Assembly: GCA_963797555.1 (NCBI GenBank)
Contig: CAWCPV010000014.1
Coordinates: 64,001 to 128,000 of the forward strand
Length of the DNA: 64,000 bases
Direction: 5' to 3'
DNA from: an uncultured Gammaproteobacteria bacterium
Lineage (GTDB): Bacteria; Pseudomonadota; Gammaproteobacteria; CAWCPV01
Within the stretch, counting starts at the first letter, position 1. Every line of letters starts with the position of its first letter. Positions 39,104 through 58,246 of this stretch are shown here, piece after piece. Both the position numbers and the translations under genes were made by a program. The notes under the pieces were generated by a model that had not been told where the DNA came from, did no database searches, and saw nothing but the letters and a program-made list of their open reading frames with translations.

Positions 39104-39341
39104 AAAGATTTGCCCGCGCCCACAGCGCAGGCTTCGGGATGGGAATGGCGGCCATGGCTCTCCTCTGTCTTGTCCCGTGCGTGCAAGCATATTCCGCCCC
39201 CCTTCCCCGACAATCTTCCTTTCCTACTGCCCTTTCCTGCTTCCTGCGGGGGAACGCCTTCCCCCTGGCCCGAGCCTGTAGTCTCGGGCGCACCCCCTTC
39301 TGCGGGGACACCCCGGAACGCTGCCATGGCGCGCGGCGTGG

Positions 39342-39358
39342 CGCACCACTGCGGTGCG
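39342..39358. promoter_or_regulatory. NtrC-like enhancer site
   Basis: CGCACCActgCGGTGCG versus consensus TGCACCAnnnTGGTGCA, ~130 bp upstream of a sigma-54 promoter. Confidence 0.6.
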
Positions 39359-39485
39359 CCAGCTCGCGACTTGCGTCGCCGTGAGAGGAATGCTTCCGCC
39401 AGCCGGGCGCATCTGCGCGCCGGGCTGGTGAGCTAACCAGTTGTAAATGCGGATAAACTGCTATAGGCGAGACCGCCCGGCGGTA

Positions 39486-39501
39486 TGGCACAAAGTTCGC
39501 A
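39486..39501 (+). promoter_or_regulatory. Sigma-54 (-24/-12) promoter
   Basis: TGGCACAAAGTTCGCA (GG-N10-GC). Confidence 0.7.
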
Positions 39502-39545
39502 CGGCCCATGTTGCCGTATCTCTGTCTACAGGCCGTGAGGGAACG

Positions 39546-39722
39546 ATGGCAGGAAGTGGCCTGGGGTCGACTGCTGGCACAGGTTCGCGACCGTCGTCCT
39601 CGCGCGCCCAGGACGCTATGGAGCCATGCATGCTGCGCTTAGTGGTGGCACTCGGGTTGGGCACGGTTCTGCTGATCATCAGCATCACCGCCATCCTGCT
39701 CGGCATCGCAGAGCCGATCTGA
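39546..39722 (+). CDS. 58-aa single-TM small protein
   Basis: SD GAGGG; hydrophobic C-terminus LVVALGLGTVLLIISITAILLGIA; sigma-54 promoter 45 bp upstream. Confidence 0.55.
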   Translation: MAGSGLGSTAGTGSRPSSSRAQDAMEPCMLRLVVALGLGTVLLIISITAILLGIAEPI

Positions 39723-39937
39723 TCGCCGCGGCGGCGCCGTTCAGGCGCTGGGTCGCTTCGACAGCCCGGTCTACCGGTGCCCTTCTGACTCAGCCGGAAG
39801 GCCGGCCGGCAAGGCCGGGAGAGCGATCCTGCCGCGCGGTGCTGCGCTGGACTCGAGCGTGCCGAAAACAGGGCCGCCCTTCGGCGGGGCAGGGCCAGCG
39901 CGGGGGATTGCGACCGATCGAGGTTCCGCCTGCGTGC

Positions 39938-41563
39938 TTAGAGACGGGGACCGGCGTCCTGCAAGCGGCTGTCTCTCGGGAAGCGAGTGAAGTTCGTCAC
40001 GAATTTATGGATCAGCTCCCGCGCCTGGCGGTCGTATGCCGTCCTGTCACGCCAAACGTTGCGAGGATTCAGGATGTGGCTGTCCACGCCGCGAACGTAT
40101 TTGGGGACCTGTAGGTTGAGGCCAGGCAGAGCGTGCAACTCCACGTCCACGAGGTCCCCGCGCAGAATCGAGTGGATGAGCGTGCGGGTAGTGGCGATCT
40201 CGAAACGCCGTCCGTCCTCGTGGCCATAGCTTCCCCCCATCCATCCGGTGTTGACCAGATAGACCGGCGTCCCGTGACGCTGGATGCGCTCCATCAGGAG
40301 CTGCGCATACTCCTGGGGCCGTCTCGGGAAGAACGGGGCACCGAAGCACGCACTGAAGGTCGGCCGCACCTCCTTGAACTGTCCCACCTCGGTTCCCCCG
40401 ACCAGCGCCGTATAGCCGCTCAGGAAATGGTAGGCCGCCTGCTCCTTGGTGAGGACCGACAGAGGGGGAAGCACGCCGTAAAGGTCGCAAGTGAGAAAGA
40501 TGATCGCCCGCGGGTGCGTGGCGCGATTTCCCGGCATACGCATGTCGACGTAAGCACGCGGGTAGGCCACCCGGGTATTCTCGGTGATCGAGGCGTCGTC
40601 GTATCGCGGTGCATGGGTGATGGGGTCGAGGAGCACGTTCTCCATGATGGCCCCGAAACGGATGGCGTTCCAGATGACCGGCTCGCGCACGGGTGAGAGG
40701 TTGATGCACTTGGCGTAACAACCCCCTTCGAAGTTGAACACGCCGGCGTCGTTCCAGCCGTGCTCGTCGTCGCCGATGAGGAACCGGCCGGGATCTGCGG
40801 ACAAGGTCGTCTTGCCGGTCCCGGACAGCCCGAAGAAAAGGGCCACGTCACCATCCTCGCCAACGTTGGACGCGCAGTGCATGGGCAAGACTTCGTAGCT
40901 CGGCATGAGGTAGTTCATGACCGAGAACATGGCCTTTTTCATCTCGCCGGCGTATGGCATGCCGCAGAGCAGAACGCGCCGTTTGCCGGGGTGGATGACG
41001 ACGACACCGTCGCTCGCGGTGCGATCGCGTTTCGGGTCGGTCAGGTAAGAGGGTGCGGCGGCGATGGTCCAGTCCACGCGCGGCGGCAGCGCTGCCGCTT
41101 GGTGGATGAAGAGCTGACGCGCGAATAGGGCCTGCCATGCCGTCTCGCTCGTGACACGCAGCGAGAGGGTGTGATCGGGGTCGGCCCCGACGCGCGCGTG
41201 GGTAATGAACAGATCACGATCCCTGAGGTGGGCATGGGTGCGGGTCCAGAGCGCGTCGAACGCCCCCTCGTCGAACGGCTGGTTGATGGCCCCCCAATCG
41301 ATGTGGTCGGCGCTGCTGGGCTCGTGCACGATGAAACGGTCTTGAGGGGAGCGGCCGGTGCGTTTTCCGGTGGTGACCACGAGAGCCCCGTTTGACGCCA
41401 GGACCCCTTCTCCCCGCTCGATGGACGACGTGACCAGGCGGGGTACCTGGAGGTCGACATGGAAACGGGTCGAGTCGGCGAAGTGCGAGTCGGTGCCGTG
41501 CTCCCTATCGCCGCTGATTGGCTCGGGGGGTGCCGCGTCTGAACATGGGCGTGGACAGCTCAT
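39938..41563 (-). CDS. pckA: Phosphoenolpyruvate carboxykinase (ATP)
   Basis: TGRSP, YAGEMKK, LPMHC, GLSGTGKTTLS, IGDDEHGW, FEGGCYAK. Confidence 0.97.
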   Translation of the reverse strand: MSCPRPCSDAAPPEPISGDREHGTDSHFADSTRFHVDLQVPRLVTSSIERGEGVLASNGALVVTTGKRTGRSPQDRFIVHEPSSADHIDWGAINQPFDEGAFDALWTRTHAHLRDRDLFITHARVGADPDHTLSLRVTSETAWQALFARQLFIHQAAALPPRVDWTIAAAPSYLTDPKRDRTASDGVVVIHPGKRRVLLCGMPYAGEMKKAMFSVMNYLMPSYEVLPMHCASNVGEDGDVALFFGLSGTGKTTLSADPGRFLIGDDEHGWNDAGVFNFEGGCYAKCINLSPVREPVIWNAIRFGAIMENVLLDPITHAPRYDDASITENTRVAYPRAYVDMRMPGNRATHPRAIIFLTCDLYGVLPPLSVLTKEQAAYHFLSGYTALVGGTEVGQFKEVRPTFSACFGAPFFPRRPQEYAQLLMERIQRHGTPVYLVNTGWMGGSYGHEDGRRFEIATTRTLIHSILRGDLVDVELHALPGLNLQVPKYVRGVDSHILNPRNVWRDRTAYDRQARELIHKFVTNFTRFPRDSRLQDAGPRL

Positions 41564-41653
41564 GGCGTGCCTCCTCTGCTTGGAGCTTGTGAAGAATTCG
41601 TCTTTAATTCACAGGCGCTGAGATTGCCGTGGGGTTCTCTGAACCATCGAGGC

Positions 41654-42919
41654 TCACTGGGCCTGGAGTATAGATGCCGGGCTCTGCCTCCTCGCCCGCG
41701 CCTGCAGTTCCACCAGCTCTTCCTCCACCCCGGCGGCGTGCGTCAACTGGGCCACGTTGTGCTTGGCGAAGAACCCCTGGAACGAGCCGAAGCGCTGCAC
41801 GTACTCGACGATCAGAGACGAGTGCTGCGAGGCGCCCGAGAAGATCTGCTTGAGACCTTCGTCCTTGGAGCCGATCACGTCCAGCAGAAACTCCTTGCCT
41901 TGGTCGCGCAGCGCATGCACCACATACTCGATGTTTTCCATGCCGTCGCGATCGCCGTCCGCGACCCGGAAGGCGATGTGGTGCAGACGCGGGCCGTAGT
42001 TGCGCACGAAGTTCTCGGTCGGCGAGGGCAGACGCTCCAGGTGGCCGACGAAGTAGGGGGTGTTGTTGGCTGTAAAAACCTTCGCTGGGCTGCGGGTCTC
42101 GTCCGCGTGGTGCGTGCTCTTGGTGACGTTGGTGGAAGAGTTCTGATCGACGATGTCGTAGGAGCCCCAATAATAGTAGCTGGACCAGGAGAGGTACTCG
42201 AGGATGGCTACCTCGCGGTTCTGGCTGTAAACTCGGGTCGCGAGATGGTCGATGGGCTGGACGAGGTCCGCGATGCGCAACTGGTGCTGCAGCGTCTTCG
42301 CCGCCTCGTATACCTCCTGCACCTCTGCACGTATCGAGCCCAGGCCCAGGGCGTACACCCGCAGCTCGTGAGGCGGGCGCTCCCAGTACGCGACGATGTT
42401 GTGCGTGTATGGCGAGGGCTTGCTCACGGCCATGTTGCCCGGCAACTCCAGCTTGCGGATCTCGTCCTGCGAGAAGAAACGGAACTCCCGCTCCTCCTGC
42501 AGGGTGACTACGCTGTGCAGGTCGGTGACCCGCAACACCTCGCCGATGTAGCGGCAGTTGGGCCTCTTCGCCCCGATGGGGTAGACCTCGTTGAGGCTGC
42601 GAAAGATTCCGCGTGTGTTCGGGTCCTTCACCTCACGCACCAGGAAGTCGGGCGAATCCATGTTGACACGCAGGACGTGGGTCCAATGGGACTCGCTCTC
42701 CAGGGTCACGAGATAATGGTAGGGTGTCATCAGCGACAGCTCGGCCACGTACTGGACGGAGTGGCCCGGCTCCACGGTGAGCATGACCGCGTCGATCTCT
42801 CGGATCATCTCCGTCAGGCCCAGCCGGTCCCGCTCTTCCAGGAGGCGCGCCAGGTAGTCCTCGAAGAATTTGGAGTTGGTCTTGTCTCCGTTGCGGGGAA
42901 ACGCCAAAGAGTGGGTCAT
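41654..42919 (-). CDS. HPPD-like VOC-superfamily metalloenzyme
   Basis: IDHLA..YGPRLHHIAF..LKQIFS..EYVQR..QGFF, matching the His/His/Glu triad pattern of hydroxyphenylpyruvate dioxygenases. Confidence 0.75.
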   Translation of the reverse strand: MTHSLAFPRNGDKTNSKFFEDYLARLLEERDRLGLTEMIREIDAVMLTVEPGHSVQYVAELSLMTPYHYLVTLESESHWTHVLRVNMDSPDFLVREVKDPNTRGIFRSLNEVYPIGAKRPNCRYIGEVLRVTDLHSVVTLQEEREFRFFSQDEIRKLELPGNMAVSKPSPYTHNIVAYWERPPHELRVYALGLGSIRAEVQEVYEAAKTLQHQLRIADLVQPIDHLATRVYSQNREVAILEYLSWSSYYYWGSYDIVDQNSSTNVTKSTHHADETRSPAKVFTANNTPYFVGHLERLPSPTENFVRNYGPRLHHIAFRVADGDRDGMENIEYVVHALRDQGKEFLLDVIGSKDEGLKQIFSGASQHSSLIVEYVQRFGSFQGFFAKHNVAQLTHAAGVEEELVELQARARRQSPASILQAQ

Positions 42920-42964
42920 AGGCCGGTAGGGTCCTCCCGGAGTCGTGGGTTACCCGGATGACAT

Positions 42965-42980
42965 AGCAAACTCCGTGCCT
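42965..42980 (-). promoter_or_regulatory. Sigma-54 promoter of the VOC-pckA unit
   Basis: Minus strand AGGCACGGAGTTTGCT (GG-N10-GC). Confidence 0.7.
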
Positions 42981-43100
42981 CACGATCCGGTGCCAGGCGG
43001 ATTGTCGTCGCAAACGGCCCGAGCGCCTGATTCTGCTCGGAAAATGTCTCGGTGACGCCTCGTGGTGCGGCGTGCTCCGGGCATTTCCGGAGGCAGCCAT

Positions 43101-43138
43101 GGCGCCTAGTTGGTGCGATGCCGCACTGCTGCGGAGCA
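43101..43138. promoter_or_regulatory. Tandem NtrC-like sites
   Basis: GGCGCCTAGTTGGTGCG and CGCACTGCTGCGGAGCA, 21 bp apart, between divergent sigma-54 promoters. Confidence 0.5.
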
Positions 43139-43205: not shown

Positions 43206-43221
43206 TGGCACGGAACGTGCT
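43206..43221 (+). promoter_or_regulatory. Sigma-54 promoter of the AstE/M14 operon
   Basis: TGGCACGGAACGTGCT (GG-N10-GC). Confidence 0.7.
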
Positions 43222-43268: not shown

Positions 43269-44231
43269 ATGCGGATATGGCGTGAGGATGTTCTGGGTTT
43301 CGAGATGCCCTACGGCGGAGCGCGTACGGTCAGGCGTATGGCGTTCGCCGGCGCCGATCGGCCGAAGCTCGCCGTGGTGGCCGGCATCCACGGTGACGAG
43401 CTGGACGGACTCTACCTATGCCAGCGGCTCATGGCGTGGCTCGAGGGCCTGTCGCACGAACATCCGCAGGCGCTGCTCGGGAGGGTCGATCTCTACCCCG
43501 CGGCGAATCCCCTCGGGACCGATGTGCTGGCGCGCGAGATGCCGCCCTTCGAGGCTGACCTGAACCGGGCCTTTCCAGGCCGCGGCGACGGCAGTTTGCC
43601 CGAGCGTGTGGCCGAATGCCTGCTGCGCGATCTGGAAGGCAGCGCACTGGTGGTGGACGTGCACGGGAGCAATCGGTTTCTGCGGGAGATTCCCCAACTG
43701 CGCCTCCCTCCCGAGCACGCCGAGACCCTGTTGCCACTCGCCCGCCATCTCAATGTGGAGCTGGCATGGCTGCAGCCGTCGCCGCTCAGGACGACGTTGC
43801 GCAGCGTGCTCAATGCGCGGGGTATCCCGTGCATCATCGTGGAGACAGGGATTGCCCAGCGCGTGCACGCTGCCGAGGTGGAACAGCTCCTGATCGGAAT
43901 ACTGAGCACCTGCCGAGCGCTCGGTATCCTTTCCCAGGCACTGGAGCTGCCTCCGTGCTGCTACAGCGCGCACGTGGTCCGGGAAAGCGACATCTCCTAC
44001 GTGAACTCTCCTGCAGCCGGCCTGTTCGTGCCCGCAGCCGCTCACGGCAGCTCGGTGTACCAGGGACAATCGCTGGGACACATCGTTTCGCCCGAAGAGG
44101 CGCAGCCGCTAGCCGAGGTGCAGGCGCCCGTGGCCGGGCGGCTGTTTAGTCTGAGGGAGGTCCCGATGGTTTATGAAGGCTCGCTGCTCGGGCGCATCGC
44201 GGACGCCCAGGCATTGGGACAAGTCCCGTGA
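43269..44231 (+). CDS. Succinylglutamate desuccinylase/aspartoacylase-family (M14) protein
   Basis: GIHGDE, DLNRAFPG, DVHG, IVETG; C-terminal biotinyl-like barrel. Confidence 0.9.
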   Translation: MRIWREDVLGFEMPYGGARTVRRMAFAGADRPKLAVVAGIHGDELDGLYLCQRLMAWLEGLSHEHPQALLGRVDLYPAANPLGTDVLAREMPPFEADLNRAFPGRGDGSLPERVAECLLRDLEGSALVVDVHGSNRFLREIPQLRLPPEHAETLLPLARHLNVELAWLQPSPLRTTLRSVLNARGIPCIIVETGIAQRVHAAEVEQLLIGILSTCRALGILSQALELPPCCYSAHVVRESDISYVNSPAAGLFVPAAAHGSSVYQGQSLGHIVSPEEAQPLAEVQAPVAGRLFSLREVPMVYEGSLLGRIADAQALGQVP

Positions 44232-45166
44232 CGCGCCGGCACTTAAGACAGGTGGCGGCGCCGCTAGGCGAGGCCGATATCCCGTACCACGACCTCGGGG
44301 GGGACGGCGCGCCCCGGGCCGTTCTGGTGGCCGGGTTGCGAGGGAACGAGGTGAACGGGGTGTTCGTGCTGGCGAGACTGGCGGCGTACCTCGGCGCGCT
44401 CGGCAGGGGCGAGCAGCAGGGGCGCCTGGGCGGGCGTACGCTGATCGTTCCCGCCGTGAACGTCGCCGGCCTGCACACCTCGACCCGGACCTGGCCGGTC
44501 GACAACACCGACATCGACCAGATGTTTCCGGGCAATGACCGGGGCGAGACCACCCAGCGCATCGCCTACGCGCTCTTGGAGATGAGCAAGGGTAGCTACT
44601 TCCGGATCGATGTGCGGGGCGGCTCAGAGGGCCTGGAAGAGGTCCCTCACGTGCGTCTCGTGGAACCCCACGACGACGAACGCAGCACGGCCTGCCAGTT
44701 CGGCCTGCCGGTGGTGGAGGCGCTGCCGGAGGAGGCTCACGGGACTAGCCTGTACGCGGCCTGGCGGCCTTGGGGTGGGGAGTGCTTCGTGCTGCACGCG
44801 GGTCTGGCGGGCACCTTGCAGTTGCGTCACTGCGAGCGCCTGTTCCATGCCATCGTGGCCTTCCTGCACCGCACCGGGATTCTGCAAGACATCACCCTCT
44901 CGGAGGAGGACGACCTCCACTACTTCGGCGTCGACCAGCGTGTGACGCTCCGTGCCGAGCGGGCAGGCATGTTCGTCTCCCACCTGGACGTGGGGCGCTG
45001 GGTCCAGGCGGGCGAGACCATCGGCCACGTGTACGACGGCTTCGAGGGGGAGTTGCGGGCCGAGGTGCGGACGCCGGTATCGGGCCTGGTGAGCAGCCGG
45101 CGCAGACAACCCGTCACCTTCGAGGGTGATGTTCTGGCGCAGATCCAGCGGCCGCGATCGGGCTGA
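44228..45166 (+). CDS. AstE/AspA-family paralogue lacking zinc ligands
   Basis: GLRGNE, DIDQMFPG, DVRGG, VLHAG; overlaps the upstream stop (GTGA). Confidence 0.85.
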   Translation: MTRRHLRQVAAPLGEADIPYHDLGGDGAPRAVLVAGLRGNEVNGVFVLARLAAYLGALGRGEQQGRLGGRTLIVPAVNVAGLHTSTRTWPVDNTDIDQMFPGNDRGETTQRIAYALLEMSKGSYFRIDVRGGSEGLEEVPHVRLVEPHDDERSTACQFGLPVVEALPEEAHGTSLYAAWRPWGGECFVLHAGLAGTLQLRHCERLFHAIVAFLHRTGILQDITLSEEDDLHYFGVDQRVTLRAERAGMFVSHLDVGRWVQAGETIGHVYDGFEGELRAEVRTPVSGLVSSRRRQPVTFEGDVLAQIQRPRSG

Positions 45167-45229
45167 GTCGCACTCGACGCGGCCGTTGTGCCACACTGGT
45201 GCCGCCATCACGCACCGAGTTCCCGGGCC

Positions 45230-46921
45230 ATGTCCGAGTTGCGCTTCGATCGCTACTACCGTTACGAAGACCTCTCTCGTGTCTTGCATGCCTTGCCTGC
45301 ACAATACCCCGACCTGGTTCGCATCGAGAGCATCGGTCGCAGCTTCGAGGGGCGGGATCTGTGGCTGCTGACCCTGACTCGCTTCGACACGGGCGCCGAT
45401 GCGGACAAGCCTGCCCTGTGGGTGGACGGCAACATCCACGCCGCCGAGGTGGCCGCTTCCAGCGCTTGCCTGTATTTCCTGCATCGTCTGATCACGGGTT
45501 ACGGCAGCGACCCGGACATCACTCGTTGCCTGGATACACGGGTGTTCTACGTGTGTCCGCGAGCGAACCCGGACGGAGCGGAGTGGGCACTCGCCGATCG
45601 TCCGCGCTTGGTGCGCTCCAGCACGCGCCCGTATCCGTTCCCGGACCCTCTGCCCGGTGGAATGACGCCCGAGGACGTCGACGGCGACGGTCGCATCCTG
45701 TGGATGCGGATCGCCGACCCCAACGGTCCATGGAAGAAGTGCCCCGAGGAGCCGCGCCTCCTGGTCCGACGGGAGCCTGCCGAAACCGGTGGCGAGTACT
45801 ACCGGTTGCTCCCGGAGGGGCTCGTCGAACACTACGATGGTGCGATGATCCGTCTCAAGGATAGCGAGCAAGGCCTTGACTTGAATAGGAACTTCCCAGC
45901 TCAATGGCGTCTTGAGCAGGAGCAGAAAGGGGCGGGACCCTACCCGACCTCGGAGCCGGAGGTCAGAGCCTTGGTGGAGTCCATCTGCGCTCACCCGAAC
46001 ATTACCGGCGGCGTGTCTTTCCACACGTACAGCGGCGTCCTGCTGCGCCCCTACAGCGACCGCGACGACGATGCGTTCCCGGCCGAGGATCTCTGGACCT
46101 ACGAGAAGATCGCGCAGAAGGGGACGGCGGTCACCGGCTATCGCGCGGTCTCGTCTTTCCGGGAGTTCCGCTATCACCCTCGACAGGTGACTACCGGGGT
46201 TTTCGACGACTGGCTCTATGAGCACCGCGGCGTCTTCGGCTGGACGGTGGAGCTGTGGAGCCCTCAGCGGGAGGCGGGGATCGAGGGGTACCGTTTCATC
46301 GAATGGGACCGCGAGCACGCCGTCGAAGATGATCTGAAGCTGCTCCAGTGGAGCGACCGGACGCTCGGCGGCCGGGGCTATGTCGCGTGGTACCCGTTCG
46401 AGCACCCACAGCTCGGCCCGGTGGAGTTGGGGGGCTGGGATTACTTCCACGCGCTCCAGAACCCGCCCCCGGAACTCTTGGAGAAGGAGCTGAGGCCGTT
46501 CCCCGAGTGGTTGGTCTGGCACCTGCTCATCTCCCCGCGTCTCGAGCTGTGCGAGGTCTCCGCGGTCTCCTTGGGCGGGGACCTTTACCGGATACGTCTG
46601 GTGGTCCAGAACACGGGCTGGCTGCCCAGCTATGTGACCAAACGTGCCGTGGACAAGCGGTTGGTGCGGGGCGTGCGCTGCGCGATCGAGCTGCCCGAAG
46701 GCGCGCGTCTCACCATGGGGGAGCCGGTGCAGGAGCTGGGACAGCTAGAGGGCCGTGCCTACAAGCCATCCGCCCCGAGCGGGTGGATGGCGGGTACTTT
46801 CGATACTACCGACGATCGCGTCAAGGCCGAATGGGTGGTGTGCGCCCCGACCCGCGGCACGGTGCACCTCACTGCCCGCCAGGAGCGCGCCGGGACCGTG
46901 CGAACGGCACTCCCGCTGTAG
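45230..46921 (+). CDS. M14 zinc carboxypeptidase
   Basis: GNIHAAE, NPDG, DLNRNFP, SFHTYSG, TVEL. Confidence 0.92.
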   Translation: MSELRFDRYYRYEDLSRVLHALPAQYPDLVRIESIGRSFEGRDLWLLTLTRFDTGADADKPALWVDGNIHAAEVAASSACLYFLHRLITGYGSDPDITRCLDTRVFYVCPRANPDGAEWALADRPRLVRSSTRPYPFPDPLPGGMTPEDVDGDGRILWMRIADPNGPWKKCPEEPRLLVRREPAETGGEYYRLLPEGLVEHYDGAMIRLKDSEQGLDLNRNFPAQWRLEQEQKGAGPYPTSEPEVRALVESICAHPNITGGVSFHTYSGVLLRPYSDRDDDAFPAEDLWTYEKIAQKGTAVTGYRAVSSFREFRYHPRQVTTGVFDDWLYEHRGVFGWTVELWSPQREAGIEGYRFIEWDREHAVEDDLKLLQWSDRTLGGRGYVAWYPFEHPQLGPVELGGWDYFHALQNPPPELLEKELRPFPEWLVWHLLISPRLELCEVSAVSLGGDLYRIRLVVQNTGWLPSYVTKRAVDKRLVRGVRCAIELPEGARLTMGEPVQELGQLEGRAYKPSAPSGWMAGTFDTTDDRVKAEWVVCAPTRGTVHLTARQERAGTVRTALPL

Positions 46922-49017: not shown

Positions 49018-50463
49018 TCAGTCCATCAGCACCCACGTATCTTTGCTGCCGCCCCCCTGCGACGAGTTCACCACCAGCGACCCCTCGCGCAGCGCCACGC
49101 GGGTCAGTCCCCCGGGGACCACCTCGATGTCCTCGCCGTAGATAACGAAAGGCCGTAGGTCCACGTGGCGTGATTCTAGCTCGCCGTTCAGGTAGCAGCT
49201 GTGCACGGAGAAGTTCACCACCGGCTGGGCGATGTAGTTCCGCGGGTTCTTCTGGATGGCGTCGGAGAACTCGCCCCGTTGCTTCGGGGTGGAGGCGGGC
49301 CCCACCAGCATGCCGTAACCCCCGGACTCGTTCGCCGCTTTGACGACCATCCGCTCCAAGTTGTCCAGAACGAAGGCCTGCTCCTCCGGGTTGACCATCT
49401 CGTAAGTGGAGACGTTCTCGAGGATGGGCTCCTCCGCGAGGTAATAGCGGATCACGTCCGGCACATAGGGATAAACGGCCTTGTCGTCGGCGATGCCGGC
49501 CCCCGGTGCGTTCGCCAGAGCGACGTTGCCGGCGCGCCAGGCGTTGATGATCCCGCTGACGCCCAGAGACGAATCGCGGCGGAAGCAGAGCGGGTCGAGG
49601 AAGTCGTCGTCCACCCGCCGGTAGACCACGTCTACCCGCTGCAGGCCGCGCGTGGTCTTGGTGTAGACGGTGTTGTTCTTCACCACCAAGTCCCGGCCCT
49701 CGACCAGCTCGATGCCCATCTCCTTGGCCAGGAAGGTATGCTCGAAGTATGCGGAGTTGTAGATGCCGGGCGTGAGGACCACGACCTCGGCCTGCTCTCG
49801 CCCGCGCGGCGAGATGTGTCGCAGCGCCTGGAGAAGCAGCGCCGGGTAATGCTCCACCCGGCGCACGCGGTAGCGGGCGAAGAAGTTCGGCATGATGGAC
49901 CGCTCCAGCATGCGGTTCTCGATCATGTACGATACGCCCGAGGGGGTGCGCAGGTTGTCCTCCAGCACCACGTAGCGGCCTTGCTCGTCTCGGATGAGGT
50001 CGATCCCGCTGATGTGCGTGTAAACGTTTTGCGGGGGATCGATATCCATCAGCTCGAAGCGCAGATGCCTGCCCTGGTAAATGAGGTCGGCCGGAACCAC
50101 TCCGTCTCGGAGCACACGCTGCTCGTGATACAGATCCTTCAGGAACAAATTGAGCGCCCGCACCCGCTGCTTCAGCCCCGCCTCGATGGCGACCCATTCC
50201 TGGGCCGGGATGATGCGCGGGATGATGTCGAAGGGCCAGATGCGTTCGATGCCATCCTCCTGGTCGCCGTAGACGGTGAAGGTGACCCCCTCGCTGAGCA
50301 GGGCCAGATGCGCCTCCCTCACCTTTTCGGCGAGTGCGCTCTTGCCCGCCTTGCGGATATGCTCCCACAGCGGGAGATAGTGGGTGCGGGGCTCGAAGTC
50401 GTCCTGGAAGAACTCGTGGTAGGGGACGTCGTCCGCCTTTTCGCCGCTCTCCGGAACGTACAT
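49018..50463 (-). CDS. Circularly permuted ATP-grasp type 2 ligase
   Basis: LEDNLRTPSGVSY, NSAYFEH, YRRVDD, GGYGM, DLRPF, NSSQGGGSKDTWV. Confidence 0.95.
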   Translation of the reverse strand: MYVPESGEKADDVPYHEFFQDDFEPRTHYLPLWEHIRKAGKSALAEKVREAHLALLSEGVTFTVYGDQEDGIERIWPFDIIPRIIPAQEWVAIEAGLKQRVRALNLFLKDLYHEQRVLRDGVVPADLIYQGRHLRFELMDIDPPQNVYTHISGIDLIRDEQGRYVVLEDNLRTPSGVSYMIENRMLERSIMPNFFARYRVRRVEHYPALLLQALRHISPRGREQAEVVVLTPGIYNSAYFEHTFLAKEMGIELVEGRDLVVKNNTVYTKTTRGLQRVDVVYRRVDDDFLDPLCFRRDSSLGVSGIINAWRAGNVALANAPGAGIADDKAVYPYVPDVIRYYLAEEPILENVSTYEMVNPEEQAFVLDNLERMVVKAANESGGYGMLVGPASTPKQRGEFSDAIQKNPRNYIAQPVVNFSVHSCYLNGELESRHVDLRPFVIYGEDIEVVPGGLTRVALREGSLVVNSSQGGGSKDTWVLMD

Positions 50464-50495
50464 GCTGACTCCAGTGGATGGCCCGGCAGCACTGA

Positions 50496-50511
50496 TGCAA
50501 GGTTCGCTCCA
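50496..50511 (-). promoter_or_regulatory. Sigma-54 promoter of the CP-ATP-grasp operon
   Basis: Minus strand TGGAGCGAACCTTGCA (GG-N10-GC). Confidence 0.65.
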
Positions 50512-50688: not shown

Positions 50689-50705
50689 TGCACCAGCATG
50701 GGGCA
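50689..50705. promoter_or_regulatory. NtrC consensus site
   Basis: TGCACCAgcaTGGGGCA, one mismatch to TGCACCAnnnTGGTGCA. Confidence 0.65.
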
Positions 50706-50747: not shown

Positions 50748-50763
50748 TGGAATGGTTATTGCA
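50748..50763 (+). promoter_or_regulatory. Sigma-54 promoter of the DUF2126 gene
   Basis: TGGAATGGTTATTGCA (GG-N10-GC). Confidence 0.65.
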
Positions 50764-50815: not shown

Positions 50816-53800
50816 ATGGCGATTCTCGTCGCATTGAGCCACCAGACCCACTACCGCTACGACCGGCTGGTGACCCTGTCGCCGCACGTGATTCGGCTGC
50901 GCCCGGCCCCTCACAGCCGTACGCCGATCCACGCCTATTCGCTCAAAATCCGCCCGGAGAAGCACTTCATCAACTGGCAGCAGGACCCGTTCGGGAACTA
51001 CCTGGCGCGGCTGGTGTTCTTGGAGCGGACGCGGGAGCTCTTCGTCGAGGCGGAACGTCATCGCCGACATGACGGTAATCAACCCCTTCGACTTCTTCAT
51101 GGAGGAATACGCCGAGCACTATCCCTTCGACTACGAGCTGCAGCTCAAGAAGGAGCTCGTTCCGTATCTGGAGCTGAAGGAGAGCGGACCGCGGCTGCTG
51201 GAGTGGCTGTCGCGTGTGGACCGCTCGAAGAAGAACATCGTCTACTTCCTGGTCGATCTGAACCGGCGCCTGCAGCAGGACATCGGCTACATCATCCGTA
51301 TGGAGCCTGGCATCCAGACCTGCGAGAAGACCCTGGGACGCGGACTCGGCTCGTGCCGGGACACCGGCTGGCTGCTGGTGCAGATCCTCCGCCACCTGGG
51401 GCTCGCGGCGCGTTTCGTTTCCGGCTACCTGGTGCAGCTTACCGCGGACGTCAAGTCGCTGGACGGGCCGTCGGGGCCCGAGCAGGACTTCACCGACCTG
51501 CACGCCTGGGCCGAGGTCTATGTACCGGGCGCCGGCTGGGTGGGTCTGGACCCGACCTCGGGCCTGTTCGCGGGCGAGGGACACATCCCGCTGGCCTGCA
51601 CTCCCGATCCGGTGAGTGCGGCGCCTATTACCGGCTCCACCGACGATGCCGAGGTGGAATTCCATTTCACCAACCGGGTCACCCGCATCCACGAGGATCC
51701 GCGCGTCACCAAGCCCTACCGCGAGGATCAGTGGGCGACCATCGATGCATTGGGCCGGGCGGTGGACGCCGAGCTGTCCGCGCGCGACGTGCGCCTCACC
51801 ATGGGAGGCGAGCCCACCTTCGTCTCCATCGACGACATGGACGGTGCCGAGTGGAACATCGCCGCCCTGGGCGCCGCCAAGCGCGAGCTGGCGGGCGACC
51901 TGTTGCGGCGGCTGCGCGAGCGCTTCGCGCCCGGCGGCGTGCTGCAATACGGACAGGGCAAGTGGTATCCGGGGGAGCCTCTGCCCCGCTGGTCGCTGGG
52001 CTGCTTCTGGCGCGAGGACGGACAGCCGGTGTGGCGGGACCCGATGCGCATGGCCGACGAGCAGCGTGACTATGGCTACGGGCCGCACCACGCCGAGCAG
52101 TTCGTGCGGCAGCTCGCCAGGCGGCTCGGTTTGGGTGAGCGCTACATCGTTCCGGGGTACGAGGATCCGGTCTTCCACCTGTGGAAGGAGCAGCGGCTGC
52201 CGGCCAACGTCGACCCTCTGAAGAGCGACCTCAAGGACGCCGAGGAACGCCGCCGCCTCGCACGGCTGCTGGCCGGCGACCTGGGCAGCCCGGCAGGCTA
52301 CGCGCTGCCGCTGCGCGCCCGCCACGGCACCGACGCCGCGCGCTGGGAGAGCAGCTCCTGGACCTTCCGTCTCGGCACCATGTACCTGACGCCGGGCGAC
52401 TCTTCGATGGGCCTGCGGCTGCCGTTGGAGTCACTGCCCTGGGTCGCCCCCGAGAAGCGCGAGGTGCGGCCGGAGCGCTCCCTGTTCGAGCCGCTCCCGC
52501 CGCTCGGCGACTACTACGGGGAGGTCGCCCGCCGTTACAGCCAGCCGCTCGCAGAGCAAGGGACGCGCGGGGATATTCAGGAGCAGGTGGTCAACGGAGC
52601 GGGCGAGAACGGGGAGAACAACGAGCCCGCGGAGGTCCTGCACACGGCCCTGTGCGTCGAAGTGCGTGAGGGACGGCTGCATATCTTTCTGCCGCCCCAG
52701 ACCCACCTGGAGGACTACCTGGACTTGGTGGCCAGCATCGAGGCCACTGCCGCCGACCTCGACATGCCGGTGATGCTGGAGGGCTATGAGCCGCCCCGCG
52801 ATTGGCGATTGCTGCGTCTGCTGGTGACGCCGGACCCCGGGGTCATCGAGGTCAACATCCACCCGGCGCACAGTTGGGAGGAGTTGGTCGAGAACACCTC
52901 GGCTCTCTATGAAGAGGCCCGGCTGGCCCGGCTCGGCACGGAGAAGTTCATGCTCGACGGGCGCCACACGGGCACCGGTGGCGGTAACCACGTCACCATC
53001 GGCGGTGCCACGCCCGCCGACAGTCCCATCCTGCGGCGGCCGGACCTGCTGCGCTCGCTCATCACCTACTGGCAGCACCATCCGTCCCTTTCCTACCTGT
53101 TCTCGGGGCTGTTCATCGGCCCCACGAGCCAGGCGCCCCGAGTGGACGAGGCCCGCGACGAGAGCGTCTACGAGCTGGAGATCGCTTTCCAGCAGATGCC
53201 GGCGGGCGAGGTGCCCCAGCCGTGGCTGGTGGACCGCTTGCTGCGGCACTTGCTGGTCGACCTGACGGGCAATACGCATCGCGCCGAGTTCTGCATCGAC
53301 AAGCTCTACTCCCCCGATAGCCCGCCGGGGCGCCTCGGGCTTGTGGAGCTGCGCGCCTTCGAGATGCCTCCCCATGCCCGCATGAGTCTGATGCAGATGC
53401 TCCTGCTGCGGGCGCTCATCGCGTGGTTTTGGACGCAGCCTTACCGCCACCCGCTGGTCCGCTGGGGCACTGAGCTGCACGATCGCTTCATGCTGCCGCA
53501 CTACGTGTGGCGTGACCTGGAAGAGGTCACGTGCGATCTGCGGCGCGCCGGCTACCCGTTCCAGGCGGAGTGGTTCGCCCCCTTCCAGGAGTTCCGCTTC
53601 CCGCACTACGGCAAGGTCACCGTGCGGGACATCGAGCTGGCTCTGCGCATGGCGGTCGAGCCGTGGCATGTGCTCGGGGAGGAGGTGACCCGCGCCGGCA
53701 CTGCGCGATTCGTGGATTCCTCCGTGGAACGGCTGGAGGTCAAGGTGACGGGTCTTACCGACTCGCGCCACATAGTGGTGTGCAACGGCCGCCGCGTCCC

Positions 53801-54212
53801 GCTCCACAACACGGGGACTCAAGGGGAGTACATCGCCGGGGTGCGCTACCGGGCCTGGCAGCCTCCTTCCGGGCTGCATCCCACCATCCCGGTGCATTCG
53901 CCCCTCGTCTTCGACATCATCGACGGCTGGAGCGGGCGCGCCATCGGCGGCTGCACTTATCACGTGGCGCACCCGGGCGGGCGCCACTACGAGGACTTCC
54001 CGGTCAACGCCTATGAAGCCGAGTCACGGCGCATCACGCGTTTCTGGGGCTACGGGCATACTCCGGGGGTGCTGCAGCCGCCTCCGGAGGTGACGAGACT
54101 CTCCCAATTCTTTCCCGAAGGGCACCCGCCCGGGCCCATGCAGCCGCCGGCCGAGACACCCGACGCGGAGTACCCTTATACGCTCGATCTGCGCCGCCGT
54201 GCCGGCTGCTGA
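50816..54212 (+). CDS. Transglutaminase plus DUF2126 putative amidoligase, one frameshift near 51055
   Basis: IRLRPAPH..WQQDPFGN; GSCRD; LHAWAEV; LTMGGEPTFVS; TPDPGVIEVN; GTGGGNH; ELRAFEMPPH. Confidence 0.93.
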
Positions 54213-54728
54213 CCCCATCTCGCGTGGGGTGGCCGCAGTTCGATCCAGCCCATCGCCAGCCCTGCCGACCAGCGCGCAGGGCGGGTGGAGCGGCGCGTAA
54301 CCGATCGTCTACCCCTGTCAGGACGCCCTCCGAATTACCGGTGATCGCGGAAGCTTCGTACCTGGGGCAGCGCTTCTCCGGCATGGCGCCGGCCGGTCGA
54401 ACGTTTCGCCTGCTCACGTCGGAGGCCAGCCGCACGCCCCGCCCGACGCCGCTCGCCGCCCGAGCATGCCGTGTGCGTCCTGAGGAGGACCGGGTGCAAC
54501 ATGGGCAGTCTGTCCATTACAATTCGCTCCGACAGGGCCAGGTAGCCCAGATGGCGGACGGACCCGATGAGTCCTTCAGCGTGACGTTCGGCTCGGAATG
54601 TTCGGCAAGGATTGAACCGCCAGAAAGCGACGGCCGGCACGTACGGCACGCGGCACCCTGTTACGGTAGGGACGATGGGTGGCGCTGCGCTCCATCCATC
54701 CTGACGAGGTCCGCTACGAGGTCCACCC

Positions 54729-57275
54729 GTGAATCCTATGCCTGACGCGGGTACGACTCTGCAGCGCCACGAGGGCGCGCGGCTGCTGGAAGACTATCAG
54801 CCGGTCCCCGGGACCTACGACGAGATGTGCTCCGAGCCCGGGGCGCTGCGCTCCCACTGGGAGTATTTGGCGCGCTGCCTGGCAACGCTGGGGCCAGGCG
54901 CACTGGTGGAGCGCCGCCAGGAGATGCTGCGCCTGCTGCGGGAAAACGGGGTGACGTACAACGTCTACGGCACCCCCGAGGGGATGGAGCGGCCCTGGGC
55001 GCTGGATCCGATCCCCTACCTCATCACCAGCCGGGAATGGGCGGTCATCGAGCGCGGCCTGATGCAGCGGGCCGAGCTGCTGAACGCCATCCTGGCGGAC
55101 TTGTACGGTCCACGAGATCTGCTCCGCAAGGGCTTTCTCCCCGTCGAGCTGGTCCACGCGCACCCGGGTTTCCTGCGCGCGTGTGTCGGAGTTCCGGTGC
55201 GCGGGCGCCATCTGCTGCTCTATGCCGCGGATCTGACCCGTTCCCCCGATGGTGCCGTCTGGGTGATGGGCGATCGGGCTCAGGCTCCATCCGGTGCCGG
55301 TTATGCGTTGGAGAACCGCATCGTCGTGTCCCGGGTGCTGCCCAGCGTGTTCCGGGATTCCCACGTACACCGCCTGGCGCACTTCTTCCGCACCGTGCGC
55401 TCGGCCCTGGCGCTCGCCTCGCCCCGCCCCCTGGACCCGCCCCGCATAGTCCTTCTGACACCGGGGCCGGGCAACGAGGCCTATTTCGAGCACGCCTACC
55501 TCGCCAACTACCTCGGCTACTCCCTGGTACAGGGGAGCGACCTCACCGTGCGCAACGGCGTCGTGTGGCTCAAGACCCTCGACGGCCTGCAGCGCGTCGA
55601 TGTGGTTCTGCGTCGCCTGGACGATACCTTTTGCGACCCCCTCGAGCTGCGCGGCGACTCCCTGCTGGGTGCACCGGGATTGCTCGCTGCGGCCCGCCTG
55701 GGGAACGTGACGCTCGCCAATGCCTTGGGCAGCGGGGTCCTGGAGAACCCAGGGCTGATGGCGTTCCTGCCGGCCCTCTGCCGAAAAATCCTGGGAGAAG
55801 ATCTCCGCATCCCCTCCGTGGCCACTTGGTGGTGCGGCGGCGACAAGGAGAGAGAGTACGTGCTTGCCAACCTACATCGGCTCGTCGTCAAGCCCGTCTT
55901 TCCCCATCCCGCACGCTGCACCCTCTTCGGCAGCCGCCTGAGCGCCGCCGAGCGCCAGGCACTGGCCGAGCGCATCCGAGCCCGGCCCTATCTCTACGTG
56001 GGTCAGGAGCAGGTGCGCCTTTCCAATGCGCCGGTCTTGGCCGATGCTCGGATGGAGCCGCGGGCCATGGCCCTGCGGACCTTTCTGGTGGCCGGCGAGG
56101 AGGGCTACGCGGCGATGCCGGGAGGTCTGACGCGGGTCGCTGCCAGCGGGGACAGCCAGCTCGTCTCCAGCCAGGCCGGGGGGGCGAGCAAGGACACGTG
56201 GGTGCTGGCCTCGGAGCCCGAGAGGCACGTGACCCTGTTGCCGCCCGCAGGCAGGCCGCTGCCGCTCACGCGCACCGGGGGCGAGGTCCCGTCGCGCGTT
56301 GCCGACGACCTGTTCTGGCTCGGCCGCTATGCGGAGCGCGCCGATCACCTGGCCCGCTTGCTGCGCGAGACGATGCTGTTGTTGCTGGAGCCGGAGACCT
56401 CGGCGCCGGAGCTACAGCTCCCCGTGCTGCTGCGCGCCGTGACCAAGATGACCGCAACCGAGCCCGGGTTCGTGGGAGAAGGCGCGGAACGACGCCTCGC
56501 CGCACCGGAGCCGGAGCTGCTCTCCCTGGTCAACGACGGCGCGCGGGCGGGCACGTTGGCCTTTACCCTGGATGCCGCCGTGACCGCAGGCCGCTCGGTA
56601 CGCAGCCGGCTGTCCGATGATGCGTGGCGCGTCATCAACCGGCTGGGGATGCGGGCGGAGCCCCCGGCAACGCTGGGGCAAGGGGTGGCCATGACCGAAG
56701 GGGCCTTGACGGCCCTCGCCGCCTTCGCCAGCCTGAGCAGCGAGAGCATGAGCCGCGGCCAGGGGCTGCGTTTCTACACGCTGGGGCGGCGCCTGGAGCG
56801 GGCGCTCGACAGCGTCGCGTTGCTGCGCTTCGTGGCGACGCGGGCGGCAGAGGCGGGCCAGCCGGTCTGGGACGTCCTGTTGGCCGTGACCGACAGTGTG
56901 ACCACCTACCGCCGCCGTTACCGCGGGGCGGCCCAGGCAGGTGCGGTCCTCGACCTGGTGCTGTGCGATGAAAGCAGCGCGCGTTCCGTGGCCTACCAGT
57001 TGGCCGCCCTGGAGCGGGAAGTGGGCCGGCTGCCCCGGCGCGGGTCGATTCCACACCGCACGCAGGAGGAGCGGCTCGCCATCGAGGCGCTCGCGGCAGT
57101 CCGGCTGGCCGACGTCGAGCGCCTGGCGGATCTACCGGCCGACGCCGCCGGCCCCGGTGGGTTGGAGCCCTTGCTGGTCCGGGTGGCGCAGCTCGGGTGC
57201 GCTCTCTCGGACGCCATCACGGCGGCCTATTTCAGCCATGCCGAGCTGCCGCAACAACTGGTGAGCCTGGGGTGA
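54729..57275 (+). CDS. CP-ATP-grasp fused to an alpha-E domain
   Basis: APSGAGYALENR, YFEHAYLA, GGASKDTWV, then SRVADDLFWLGRYAERA and GRRLERA. Confidence 0.93.
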   Translation: MNPMPDAGTTLQRHEGARLLEDYQPVPGTYDEMCSEPGALRSHWEYLARCLATLGPGALVERRQEMLRLLRENGVTYNVYGTPEGMERPWALDPIPYLITSREWAVIERGLMQRAELLNAILADLYGPRDLLRKGFLPVELVHAHPGFLRACVGVPVRGRHLLLYAADLTRSPDGAVWVMGDRAQAPSGAGYALENRIVVSRVLPSVFRDSHVHRLAHFFRTVRSALALASPRPLDPPRIVLLTPGPGNEAYFEHAYLANYLGYSLVQGSDLTVRNGVVWLKTLDGLQRVDVVLRRLDDTFCDPLELRGDSLLGAPGLLAAARLGNVTLANALGSGVLENPGLMAFLPALCRKILGEDLRIPSVATWWCGGDKEREYVLANLHRLVVKPVFPHPARCTLFGSRLSAAERQALAERIRARPYLYVGQEQVRLSNAPVLADARMEPRAMALRTFLVAGEEGYAAMPGGLTRVAASGDSQLVSSQAGGASKDTWVLASEPERHVTLLPPAGRPLPLTRTGGEVPSRVADDLFWLGRYAERADHLARLLRETMLLLLEPETSAPELQLPVLLRAVTKMTATEPGFVGEGAERRLAAPEPELLSLVNDGARAGTLAFTLDAAVTAGRSVRSRLSDDAWRVINRLGMRAEPPATLGQGVAMTEGALTALAAFASLSSESMSRGQGLRFYTLGRRLERALDSVALLRFVATRAAEAGQPVWDVLLAVTDSVTTYRRRYRGAAQAGAVLDLVLCDESSARSVAYQLAALEREVGRLPRRGSIPHRTQEERLAIEALAAVRLADVERLADLPADAAGPGGLEPLLVRVAQLGCALSDAITAAYFSHAELPQQLVSLG

Positions 57276-58246
57276 TTTGCTACCGCATCACCCACACCAC
57301 CTCGTACCGGTATAGCGGGACCGTGTCTCTTTGCCACAGCGAGGCCCATTTGGTGCCCCGTCGCGCCGGCAGCCAGCAGCTCCTGACGGCCGATCTGGCG
57401 ACGCAGCCCGCGCCGGCCGTGCGCTGCGATCGCGAGGACTTCTTCGGCAATCCCACGACGTACTTTTCCGTGGAGGTGCCCCACGATGCGCTGGAGGTGA
57501 CTGCTACCAGCGAGGTCAGCGTGATCTCCAACGGCGCCGGTGTGGATCTCACCGACGGACCGTCATGGGAGGAGGCGCGGGGGGCGCTGGCACTGGGTTC
57601 CGGCCAAGATCTCCGGGAGGCGCGCCAGTTCGTGCTGGAGTCGCCGTTCGTGGGCAGGATGCCCGAGCTTGCGAGCTATGCGCAGTCCTCGTTCACCACG
57701 CGCCGGCCCCTGCTGGATGCGGTGCGGGATCTGATGGGGCGTATCCACCGCGAGTTCGCCTACGATCCCGGATTCAGCACCATCGCGACCCCGGTGGAGA
57801 AGGTCCTGGCGCACCGCCGCGGGGTCTGCCAGGACTTCGCCCACCTCGCTATCGGCTGTCTGCGCTCCTTGGGTCTGGCGGCCCGTTACGTGAGTGGCTA
57901 CCTGGAGACGCTCCCGCCTCCCGGCCGGCCGCGGCTTCAGGGCGCAGACGCCTCCCACGCCTGGCTGTCCGCGTTCGTCCCGGACGTGGGCTGGGTCGAC
58001 CTCGACCCGACCAACGACCAGGCCCCCGGCGAGCGCTACGTCACCCTGGCCTGGGGCCGGGACTACGGAGATGTAACGCCCCTCAAGGGCGTGCTTCTGG
58101 GAGGAGGGGACCATGAGCTCACGGTCCGGGTGGATGTGCAGCCGTTGCGGGCTAGCGGTGGACCGGCGCCGGCCGCCCCGCGGGTTCCCTGCGGTGCCGC
58201 GCCATCGGGCGGCTGGGCGCCGCCACCAGGTGCTCTACTGGCGTGA
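57272..58246 (+). CDS. Transglutaminase-like protein with intact Cys-His-Asp triad
   Basis: GVCQDFAH, SHAW, LDPTN, WGRDYGDV; GTG start overlaps the upstream stop. Confidence 0.93.
   Translation: MICYRITHTTSYRYSGTVSLCHSEAHLVPRRAGSQQLLTADLATQPAPAVRCDREDFFGNPTTYFSVEVPHDALEVTATSEVSVISNGAGVDLTDGPSWEEARGALALGSGQDLREARQFVLESPFVGRMPELASYAQSSFTTRRPLLDAVRDLMGRIHREFAYDPGFSTIATPVEKVLAHRRGVCQDFAHLAIGCLRSLGLAARYVSGYLETLPPPGRPRLQGADASHAWLSAFVPDVGWVDLDPTNDQAPGERYVTLAWGRDYGDVTPLKGVLLGGGDHELTVRVDVQPLRASGGPAPAAPRVPCGAAPSGGWAPPPGALLA

Follow-up and report, generated by a model that had tools for sequence, protein, structure and literature searches.

Putative NtrC/sigma-54-controlled CP-ATP-grasp modules and a linked HPPD-like VOC protein in an uncultured gammaproteobacterium

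Gene content and modules of the locus

The DNA analysed here (the window, 64,000 nucleotides (nt) of contig CAWCPV010000014.1 from an uncultured Gammaproteobacteria bacterium) contains at 39.9-58.2 kb a group of genes coding for circularly permuted ATP-grasp (CP-ATP-grasp) ligases, alpha-E proteins and transglutaminase-like proteins, which are accompanied by VOC421, a protein of 421 amino acids (aa) related in fold to HPPD, and by two AstE-like proteins. The question of the function of the CP-ATP-grasp/alpha-E/transglutaminase genes dates from 2008-2009; these genes are widespread, and published work places them among the most strongly nitrogen-regulated ones. The gene content, the folds, the conserved linkage and the conserved -24/-12 promoters with NtrC-like boxes found at this locus are described below, together with the functions that they suggest.

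The open reading frames (ORFs) of the window were listed and filtered by third-position GC content, and Pfam scans of these ORFs were then carried out. The genome to which the window belongs (G000) consists of 20 contigs (C-numbers) that add up to 5.35 Mb, with a completeness of 84.6%. Comparisons have included 299 other genomes of the class (tallies include G039, G140 and G295), 400 other genomes of the phylum and, for VOC421, the best 80 of 364 metagenome relatives, to which the counts out of 80 given below for this protein refer; these VOC421-bearing loci, being from related organisms, are not independent of each other. Every gene named in the initial annotation of the window was found at 39.9-58.2 kb. 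That annotation had described the genes as a single supercluster; the region is instead a lineage-specific juxtaposition of separable modules. The genes are the following:

39938-41563, minus strand: pckA, ATP-dependent PEP carboxykinase (Pfam PEPCK_ATP, E 1e-191)
41654-42919, minus strand: VOC421, 421 aa, HPPD-like two-barrel VOC fold (structure model; without Pfam family)
43269-44231, plus strand: AstE1 (Pfam AstE_AspA_cat, E 3e-21)
44228-45166, plus strand: AstE2, paralogue of AstE1 (Pfam AstE_AspA_cat, E 4e-14)
45188-46921, plus strand: M14 carboxypeptidase, cytosolic, ORF of 577 aa with likely start at Met15 (Peptidase_M14, E 1e-51)
46969-47844, minus strand: TG291, transglutaminase-like third gene of a three-gene operon (Bact_transglu_N and Transglut_core)
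47832-48806, minus strand: alpha-E (aE324; PF04168, E 9e-93), separated by a 211-nt gap from CPG481 on the same strand
49018-50463, minus strand: CPG481, stand-alone CP-ATP-grasp (PF14403/PF04174, E 7e-162 and 2e-144, full profiles)
50816-54212, plus strand: transglutaminase::DUF2126, putative amidoligase (N domain, core, and DUF2126 with 1371 bits)
54213-54728: spacer of 516 nt inside the module B operon, between the large gene and CPGaE848
54729-57275, plus strand: CPGaE848, CP-ATP-grasp::alpha-E fusion (Pfam)
57197-58246, plus strand: TG349, transglutaminase-like, true start probably near 57281 (Pfam)
58739-59860, minus strand: sigma-54 activator with short N-terminus, AAA+ and HTH_8, in three frames (Pfam)

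The genes CPG481, aE324 and TG291 constitute, with the deacylase pair AstE1/AstE2, module A, and those coding for transglutaminase::DUF2126, the CP-ATP-grasp::alpha-E fusion and TG349 constitute module B. Both are known module types of the functionally unsolved CP-ATP-grasp/alpha-E/transglutaminase system, here placed side by side. A third module type, formed by a stand-alone ligase and alpha-E, is located in this genome on contig C5, and in most relatives VOC421 sits between this type and module B. The CPG481 protein matched PDB 3N6X, named 'putative glutathionylspermidine synthase', with E 2e-161, and no solved relative was found in PDB for alpha-E or for the large transglutaminase::DUF2126 protein. 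TG349 contains the canonical Cys, His and Asp motifs, and the core of the large gene also keeps Cys, His and Asp.

Module A resembles the operon that includes CP-ATP-grasp (COG2308), alpha-E (COG2307), transglutaminase-like (COG1305) and Anbu genes, for which the tagging hypothesis is described as unproven in the literature (Valas & Bourne 2008, PMC3235984; Fuchs 2017, PMC5666114; Piasecka 2017, PMC6376114). The first three genes and their order are the same, and the sigma-54-type promoters of the window fit the published induction under nitrogen limitation, whereas module A differs in the lack of an Anbu gene, in a transglutaminase without catalytic His and in the AstE1/AstE2 pair attached instead. 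The initial annotation had reported that no Anbu was visible, and none was detected among the ORFs of the region scanned against Pfam (Proteasome family), but two Anbu-like genes are present elsewhere in the genome (C5:32093-32821 and C4:48583-49410). In Pseudomonas putida the Anbu operon is the most upregulated one under nitrogen limitation, according to PMC3235984 (note added in proof, citing Hervas 2008) and PMC6376114.

Module B has its counterpart in the Burkholderia cenocepacia genes I35_5080-83, which code for a large transglutaminase-domain protein, CP-ATP-grasp, alpha-E and a transglutaminase and thus match module B in all four domain types. In an ntrC mutant the expression of that cluster is 6-9.4 log2 units lower, and it likewise depends on sigma-54 (PMC5491218). 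Module B is distinguished from the large-transglutaminase cluster by the fusion of ligase and alpha-E, by a 1-base insertion in the large gene and by the 516-nt spacer. In relatives from other families the corresponding distance is 50-110 nt, and near relatives keep the spacer with small insertions or deletions (indels); the spacer contains no Rfam family and no plus-strand sigma-54 site. The Rfam scan of positions 38000-61500 gave no match at gathering score, and nothing useful was obtained from a sigma-70 and terminator scan of the intergenic regions. The Mycobacterium tuberculosis region Rv2566-Rv2569c is presumably another large-transglutaminase cluster. A recent preprint included Rv2411c and Rv2567 only as negatives for the synthesis of gamma-aminobutyric acid (GABA)-trehalose (bioRxiv 10.64898/2026.04.15.718621).

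Conserved partners and local passengers

The AlphaFold model of VOC421 (pLDDT 93.9, pTM 0.91) retrieved HPPD and hydroxymandelate synthase in a Foldseek search, with E down to 4.6e-17, TM 0.51-0.73 and an identity of 12-18%, and the alignments span about 390-450 columns, which is the whole length of the protein. An alignment of 26 sequences shows the residues H225, H314 and E372 to be invariant or nearly invariant. When a VOC421 profile was compared with PDB chains, HPPD was found weakly (best E 0.0018), with the HHxA and EYxQR motifs aligned. VOC421 matched nothing in Pfam at E up to 0.001 (Glyoxalase_4 reached E 0.021 and 15.6 bits, with a cut-off of 27), no NCBIfam model at threshold and no PDB sequence directly. 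As judged from the model, VOC421 would correspond to the HPPD family in fold and predicted metal site, and it is a member of that family by no curated model. The designation of this protein as HPPD-like VOC in the initial annotation was right, with the HPPD fold in the model and the metal triad aligned. The two-barrel VOC fold, the C-terminal helix and the His/His/Glu metal triad are shared with the HPPD/hydroxymandelate synthase family, whereas the low identity, the separate and compact family and the location in nitrogen-regulated ligase clusters set VOC421 apart. All homologues are named 'hypothetical' (75-99% identity within the best 120), and among 1.84 billion proteins the family comprises 257 representative clusters at E up to 0.001 and 46 at 1e-30. 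Only unnamed clusters and VOC-type leads were obtained from an ESM Atlas search.

VOC421 is a conserved accessory of the CP-ATP-grasp system. A core gene (CP-ATP-grasp, alpha-E, DUF2126 or transglutaminase) was located at 1.5 kb or less from VOC421 in 49 of the 80 metagenome loci, and when the loci were restricted by the length of flanking DNA on both sides, the linkage was found in 24/33 (at least 1.5 kb), 20/23 (at least 3 kb) and 8/10 (at least 5 kb). On the upstream side of VOC421, a stand-alone ligase and alpha-E pair is divergent in 26/80 loci and co-directional in 10/80, and on the downstream side the large-gene operon is convergent in 14/80 and co-directional in 4/80. The stand-alone ligases adjacent to VOC421 in relatives show 64-77% identity to the third copy on contig C5 versus 46-62% to CPG481. 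The same association was revealed by the class survey, in which VOC421 was present in 28 of the 299 other genomes: PF14403, which is found in 88/300 genomes of the class, was present in 26 of the 28 genomes with VOC421 versus 61 of the 271 without it, and the two genes were less than 5 kb apart in 14/28, a tally read by hand from the coordinates. Co-occurrence of the VOC gene with CP-ATP-grasp genes in other organisms, which the initial annotation had proposed as a check, is therefore supported by both the loci and the genomes.

Other neighbours of VOC421 were less frequent. Anbu accompanies it in 8/80 loci, and a GAF-domain alpha-glucan phosphorylase (DUF3417 and Phosphorylase, about 880 aa) adjoins it in 9/80 (L096, L115, L124, L143, L159, L164, L166, L169 and L173). 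Single cases were a glutamate synthase large subunit (L096), a glutaminase with cNMP-binding domain (L159) and a GltD-like protein (L123). In L117, L120, L122 and L166 a DUF2126-only protein of about 730 aa, 33-39% identical to that of the window, lies upstream of VOC421 and constitutes a variant amidoligase without the transglutaminase part.

AstE1 keeps the HxxE motif, the second His and the catalytic Glu, as indicated by residue alignment. In AstE2 the positions of the zinc His, the second zinc His and the catalytic Glu are occupied by R38, R130 and H190. The nearest AstE2 relatives (P0272 and P0273) also lack the zinc histidines, and two orthologues (in genomes G270 and G301) retain the histidines and not the Glu. 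In 120 proteins of the AstE2 family the catalytic position was found to be Q (92), R (26), H (1) or L (1), and Glu in none. From these residues AstE2 is probably a non-catalytic partner, and AstE1 and AstE2 may form an active/inactive heteromer.

Clear AstE1 orthologues were found in one of the 299 other class genomes (G270, about 47-48% identity) and in one of the 400 other phylum genomes (G301), the remaining matches in the class survey being 28-33% identical. In both G270 and G301 the genes are arranged on one strand in the order ligase, alpha-E, transglutaminase, AstE1 and AstE2, with identities to the window of 74-75% (ligase, CPG481), 54-56% (alpha-E), 41-42% (transglutaminase), 47% (AstE1) and 45-50% (AstE2). 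Because the same five-gene order is present in both other genomes that carry the pair, the AstE pair has been assigned to module A, and its co-occurrence with CP-ATP-grasp genes agrees with the initial annotation. Metagenome contigs of 28953, 13383 and 5728 nt recur by size in the VOC421 and AstE2 ortholog records, circumstantial evidence suggesting that near relatives keep the VOC421/AstE arrangement of the window.

The AstE/AspA family includes succinylglutamate desuccinylase, aspartoacylase, DoeB and CphZ, with which both proteins share the AstE_AspA_cat domain and AstE1 also the catalytic residues; the pair of the window differs in being a tandem of an active and an inactive member, without ast, doe or cyanophycin context. 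Only sub-threshold DoeB matches were obtained when AstE1 and AstE2 were compared with NCBIfam. According to PMC9974463, CphZ hydrolyses isodipeptides derived from a polymer made by an ATP-grasp enzyme and its catalytic Glu is essential, and it is thus a precedent for the cleavage of products of an ATP-grasp ligase.

The other genes claimed as members of the system did not recur. AstE1, AstE2 and M14 were found in none of the 80 VOC421 loci, and the activator in one. The gene pckA lies 90 nt past the VOC421 gene on the same strand, without terminator-like site between them, and for this reason both are probably co-transcribed in this genome; it follows VOC421 in 1/80 loci and is therefore a local passenger and not a conserved partner. 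The M14 protein, with an HxxE motif at residue 84, has 396 relatives of about 60-69% identity in Chloroflexota, Cyanobacteria, Betaproteobacteria, Armatimonadota and other phyla. None of its best 80 loci (up to 10 kb on each side) contained another cluster gene at E up to 1e-10, and it is absent from the G270 and G301 operons, which makes it a local passenger of the AstE operon. The 577-aa M14 represents an unusually conserved, unnamed subfamily across phyla (loci L004-L083), and no NCBIfam model matched it. Setting the members apart from the passengers M14 and pckA prevents an over-reading of the supercluster.

The regulation and the core of the system were already known; what is new is that the HPPD-like family and the AstE1/AstE2 pair are conserved members of it. 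No paper tying an HPPD-like or AstE-like gene to the system was found in a literature search that left supplements uncovered (the NtrC regulon tables of PMC5491218, for example, might list one). In PMC3235984 and PMC6376114 the word 'dioxygenase' occurs 0 times, and 'glyoxalase' occurs 0 times in PMC3235984.

Promoters, NtrC-like boxes and regulators

The search for sigma-54-type sites used the consensus TGGCAC-N5-TTGCW, in which GG and GC had to match, and NtrC-like boxes were compared with TGCACC-N5-GGTGCA. The sites assigned to the units of the locus are the following:

42965-42980, minus strand: VOC421 promoter of the sigma-54 type with 1 mismatch, start codon 45 nt downstream
43101-43138: two NtrC-like boxes (43101 and 43122), 21 nt apart, between the divergent promoters, 3 mismatches each
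43206-43221, plus strand: AstE1-AstE2-M14 promoter of the sigma-54 type with 1 mismatch, start codon 47 nt downstream
50496-50511, minus strand: CPG481-aE324-TG291 promoter of the sigma-54 type with 2 mismatches, start codon 32 nt downstream
50689-50705: NtrC-like box in the CPG481/large-gene control region, 1 mismatch, the best and the only such box in the 64 kb
50748-50763, plus strand: transglutaminase::DUF2126 operon promoter of the sigma-54 type with 2 mismatches, start codon 52 nt downstream
39342-39358: palindromic NtrC-like box, 2 mismatches, about 144 nt upstream of the 39486 site
39486-39501, plus strand: sigma-54-type -24/-12 site before a small ORF, peripheral third unit, 1 mismatch

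The window contains four sigma-54-type sites with at most one mismatch, two of them correctly oriented in the 350-nt divergent region between VOC421 and AstE1. Two more, with 2 mismatches, lie in the divergent region between CPG481 and the large gene. Since 89 sites with at most one mismatch and 1145 with at most two are present in the 5.35 Mb of the genome on both strands, the correct placement of these four sites, 32-52 nt ahead of the leading start codons of VOC421, AstE1, CPG481 and the large gene, is far beyond chance. The units share sigma-54-type promoters, as the initial annotation had stated, and these are conserved in orthologous loci: a site with at most two mismatches precedes 55 of 77 VOC421 orthologues, mostly at 35-63 nt from the start, whereas control spacings of 3, 4, 6, 7 and 8 gave 1-5/77. 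The C5-type stand-alone ligase genes located beside VOC421 show the site in 7/9 cases, four of them perfect, and the two CPG481 orthologues of module A (G270 and G301) both have a site with 1 mismatch. NtrC-like boxes with at most 3 mismatches were found in 53 of 74 VOC421 upstream regions versus 17-28 of 74 for control spacings, and 44 of 88 box matches lie 140-200 nt before the start, often in pairs about 31 nt apart. This enrichment, and the NtrC/sigma-54 dependence of homologous clusters reported in PMC5491218 and PMC3235984, support the wiring to NtrC that had been proposed from the sequence.

A true NtrC is encoded at C4:337233-338597 (TIGR01818, 750 bits, cut-off 558.6). The activator adjacent to module B, which has a 97% identical copy on contig C3, matched TIGR01818 at profile positions 130-363 only and has about 65 aa before the AAA+ domain. 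It is not NtrC, since it lacks the receiver domain and matches the model partially, and with its presence in a single VOC421 locus it is not a conserved neighbour.

The site at 39486-39501 precedes a small ORF that heads towards the 3' end of pckA and has a hydrophobic end, probably membrane-spanning.

Possible functions of the locus

On balance the locus is probably an island of the nitrogen-limitation regulon, composed of amide-forming and amide-cleaving modules controlled by NtrC and sigma-54. Under nitrogen limitation, NtrC (contig C4) and sigma-54 would switch on all the units; the ATP-grasp and DUF2126 enzymes would form amide bonds via acyl-phosphates; the thiol (transglutaminase-like) and zinc (AstE1) amidohydrolases would cut amide or isopeptide bonds, and the oxygenase-like VOC421 may modify the substrate or the product. 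M14 and pckA are probably co-transcribed with the system, and only in this lineage. Glutathionylspermidine synthetase/amidase combines an ATP-dependent ligase, which makes an amide bond, with a papain-like thiol amidase, which breaks it again. The putative build-and-cleave logic of the window resembles, by analogy, that of this enzyme and that of cyanophycin synthetase/cyanophycinase/CphZ. The pairing of ligase and thiol amidase and the match of CPG481 to 3N6X are points in common with glutathionylspermidine synthetase/amidase; the window differs in having the activities on separate proteins and in a circularly permuted ATP-grasp that either requires alpha-E or is fused with it.

Several observations weigh against this nitrogen-limitation reading. 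Genome-wide the -24/-12 motif is no commoner than control spacings (85 sites at 1 mismatch versus 66-109), and because it is not enriched the promoter argument rests on position and conservation. Large-gene orthologues show a site with at most two mismatches in 7/17 cases, only 5/17 being well placed, with noisy controls reaching 3/17; the own C5 ligase and the two Anbu-like genes have no such site within 300 nt, and the boxes at 43101 and 43122 near VOC421/AstE1 are at chance level (52 such 3-mismatch matches in 64 kb). The gene rpoN was not found in the 84.6%-complete assembly (PF04552 and PF04963 gave 0 matches), nor did tblastn with the longest ORFs of the rpoN loci of five relatives give any match, four of these ORFs being rpoN-sized and one of 826 aa maybe another gene. 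This absence has been taken as incompleteness because NtrC and at least nine other sigma-54 activators are encoded. The linkage of the AstE pair consists of two genomes and coinciding contig sizes. No Anbu peptidase activity and no stable complexes were obtained, according to PMC6376114. Finally, the function of the modules in this strain is uncertain, given the catalytic degeneration of TG291 and AstE2 and the frameshift in one ligase gene.

Small-molecule scavenging and protein tagging are the main mechanistic rivals. In the first, considered here as possible, nitrogen would be scavenged from small molecules by ligation, oxidation and hydrolysis: an ATP-grasp ligase or DUF2126, which is glutamine-synthetase-like, would attach an acyl or gamma-glutamyl group to an amine compound, the HPPD-like oxygenase would transform the conjugate, and AstE1 or the transglutaminase-like hydrolases would release glutamate or aspartate. 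Such a route follows the logic of the Puu and AST pathways. It is in line with the 73-80% identity of VOC421 across families, like that of a metabolic enzyme, with the metal triad kept; with the action of AstE-family enzymes on N-acyl amino acids and isodipeptides (PMC9974463; PDB names); with the neighbours of VOC421 in relatives, which include the glutamate synthase large subunit, the glutaminase and the GltD-like protein as single cases and the GAF-glucan phosphorylase in 9/80 loci, and with units that appear to be under NtrC-type control. Against scavenging, the cluster has no conserved transporter, aminotransferase or dehydrogenase, and peptides or proteins are the substrates suggested by the proteasome-like Anbu, which is part of the classical operon and occurs with the system in 8/80 loci. 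A more specific version is offered tentatively: the system would be an NtrC-controlled small-molecule pathway and not a tagging one, in which the ligase conjugates an amino acid to a nitrogen compound, a dedicated HPPD-like Fe(II) oxygenase family oxidises the conjugate, and an AstE1/AstE2 heteromer with one active and one dead subunit, or the thiol amidases, release the amino acid. If true, the small-molecule reading would mean a new nitrogen-scavenging route and a first function for Anbu-associated genes. The locus adds to the system two linked enzymes of interpretable chemistry, a protein with Fe(II)-oxygenase fold and an active/inactive zinc deacylase pair, which are easier to assay than the ligases and narrow the products to something oxidisable and deacylatable.

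The role of these genes in protein or peptide tagging was reportedly proposed by Iyer et al. in 2009. Applied to the window, the ligases would tag proteins, possibly alpha-E, and transglutaminase-like peptidases and Anbu would remove the tags or degrade the proteins, recycling nitrogen. The core domain set is present, alpha-E is fused to the ligase in module B, and Anbu-like genes exist in the genome and in 8/80 loci of relatives, in keeping with the hypothesis as summarised in PMC5666114 and PMC6376114. The latter reports no Anbu activity, no complexes and no confirmed tagging. Neither an enzyme with Fe(II)-oxygenase fold nor an N-acyl-amino-acid deacylase would be expected for tagging, and the transglutaminase-like third genes are often without catalytic residues. 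This explanation is regarded as doubtful.

That the locus is decaying or mis-assembled, and the cluster no longer functional in this organism, is considered unlikely. In favour of decay, the large gene has the N domain in one frame and the core and DUF2126 in another, with one extra base at 51054 that was located by alignment with the relatives G039 and G001 (the same gap in both); the activator is distributed in three frames; completeness is 84.6% with only 20 contigs; and two of the hydrolases proposed in the initial annotation are degenerate, TG291 having Tyr in place of the catalytic His (with Cys and Asp intact) and AstE2 lacking both the catalytic Glu and the zinc histidines. These substitutions are lineage traits and not errors, because they are shared with independent relatives: the Tyr of TG291 is common to its three nearest relatives P0391 (96% identity, an independent metagenome protein), P0392 and P0393, and the changes of AstE2 are found in P0272 and P0273, with the catalytic Glu in 0/120 members of the AstE2 family. 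More distant TG291 orthologues keep the His, and several lose the Cys. Fourteen sequencing runs of DNA type, and none of RNA, were listed for the window, and the indels were checked with Logan contigs of four marsh-metagenome runs (X1-X4), which correspond to related strains. The extra base at 51054 was absent in X2 (depth 13.8 of 13.8) and X3 (6.68 of 6.68), and X1 and X4 gave no cover of the position; its absence from the related-strain contigs of two runs suggests that the insertion arose either in the assembly or very recently. Aside from the frameshifted ones, all genes of the region have intact frames and high third-position GC in the ORF listing. The low completeness, the 20 contigs and the several frameshifted genes suggest an indel-rich long-read assembly, and with such completeness and contig number the frameshifts may be assembly errors.

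A cyanophycin-like nitrogen-storage polymer made and degraded by the cluster, as suggested in the initial annotation, has a formal parallel in cyanophycin synthetase (ATP-grasp), cyanophycinase and the AstE-family dipeptidase CphZ (PMC9974463), yet it is very unlikely. It is hard to reconcile with the induction of homologous clusters at times of nitrogen limitation (PMC3235984 and PMC5491218), in which a store is consumed and not built, with ligase and hydrolase genes that share one operon and promoter, and with an AstE1 that is not close to CphZ, no CphZ chain being among its PDB matches.

Other features of the window were observed around the modules. Copies with 87-97% identity to the end of TG349, the activator and a DsbD_2 gene (57998-60928) occur in other parts of the genome (C3:784758-785122, C3:420923-422936 and C6:57121-57610), and an element of about 100 nt (58283-58381) recurs on contigs C3, C4 and C14; these repeated pieces are either a segmental duplication or strain-variant contigs. 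Upstream of the cluster, positions 24593-38300 constitute a probable mobile island, with lower GC content at 34-36 kb, that carries genes for a TnsA-like endonuclease domain protein (24593-27085), a phage-type integrase (28950-29600), a TPR protein (36439-37659) and a RadC-like JAB protein (37656-38300).

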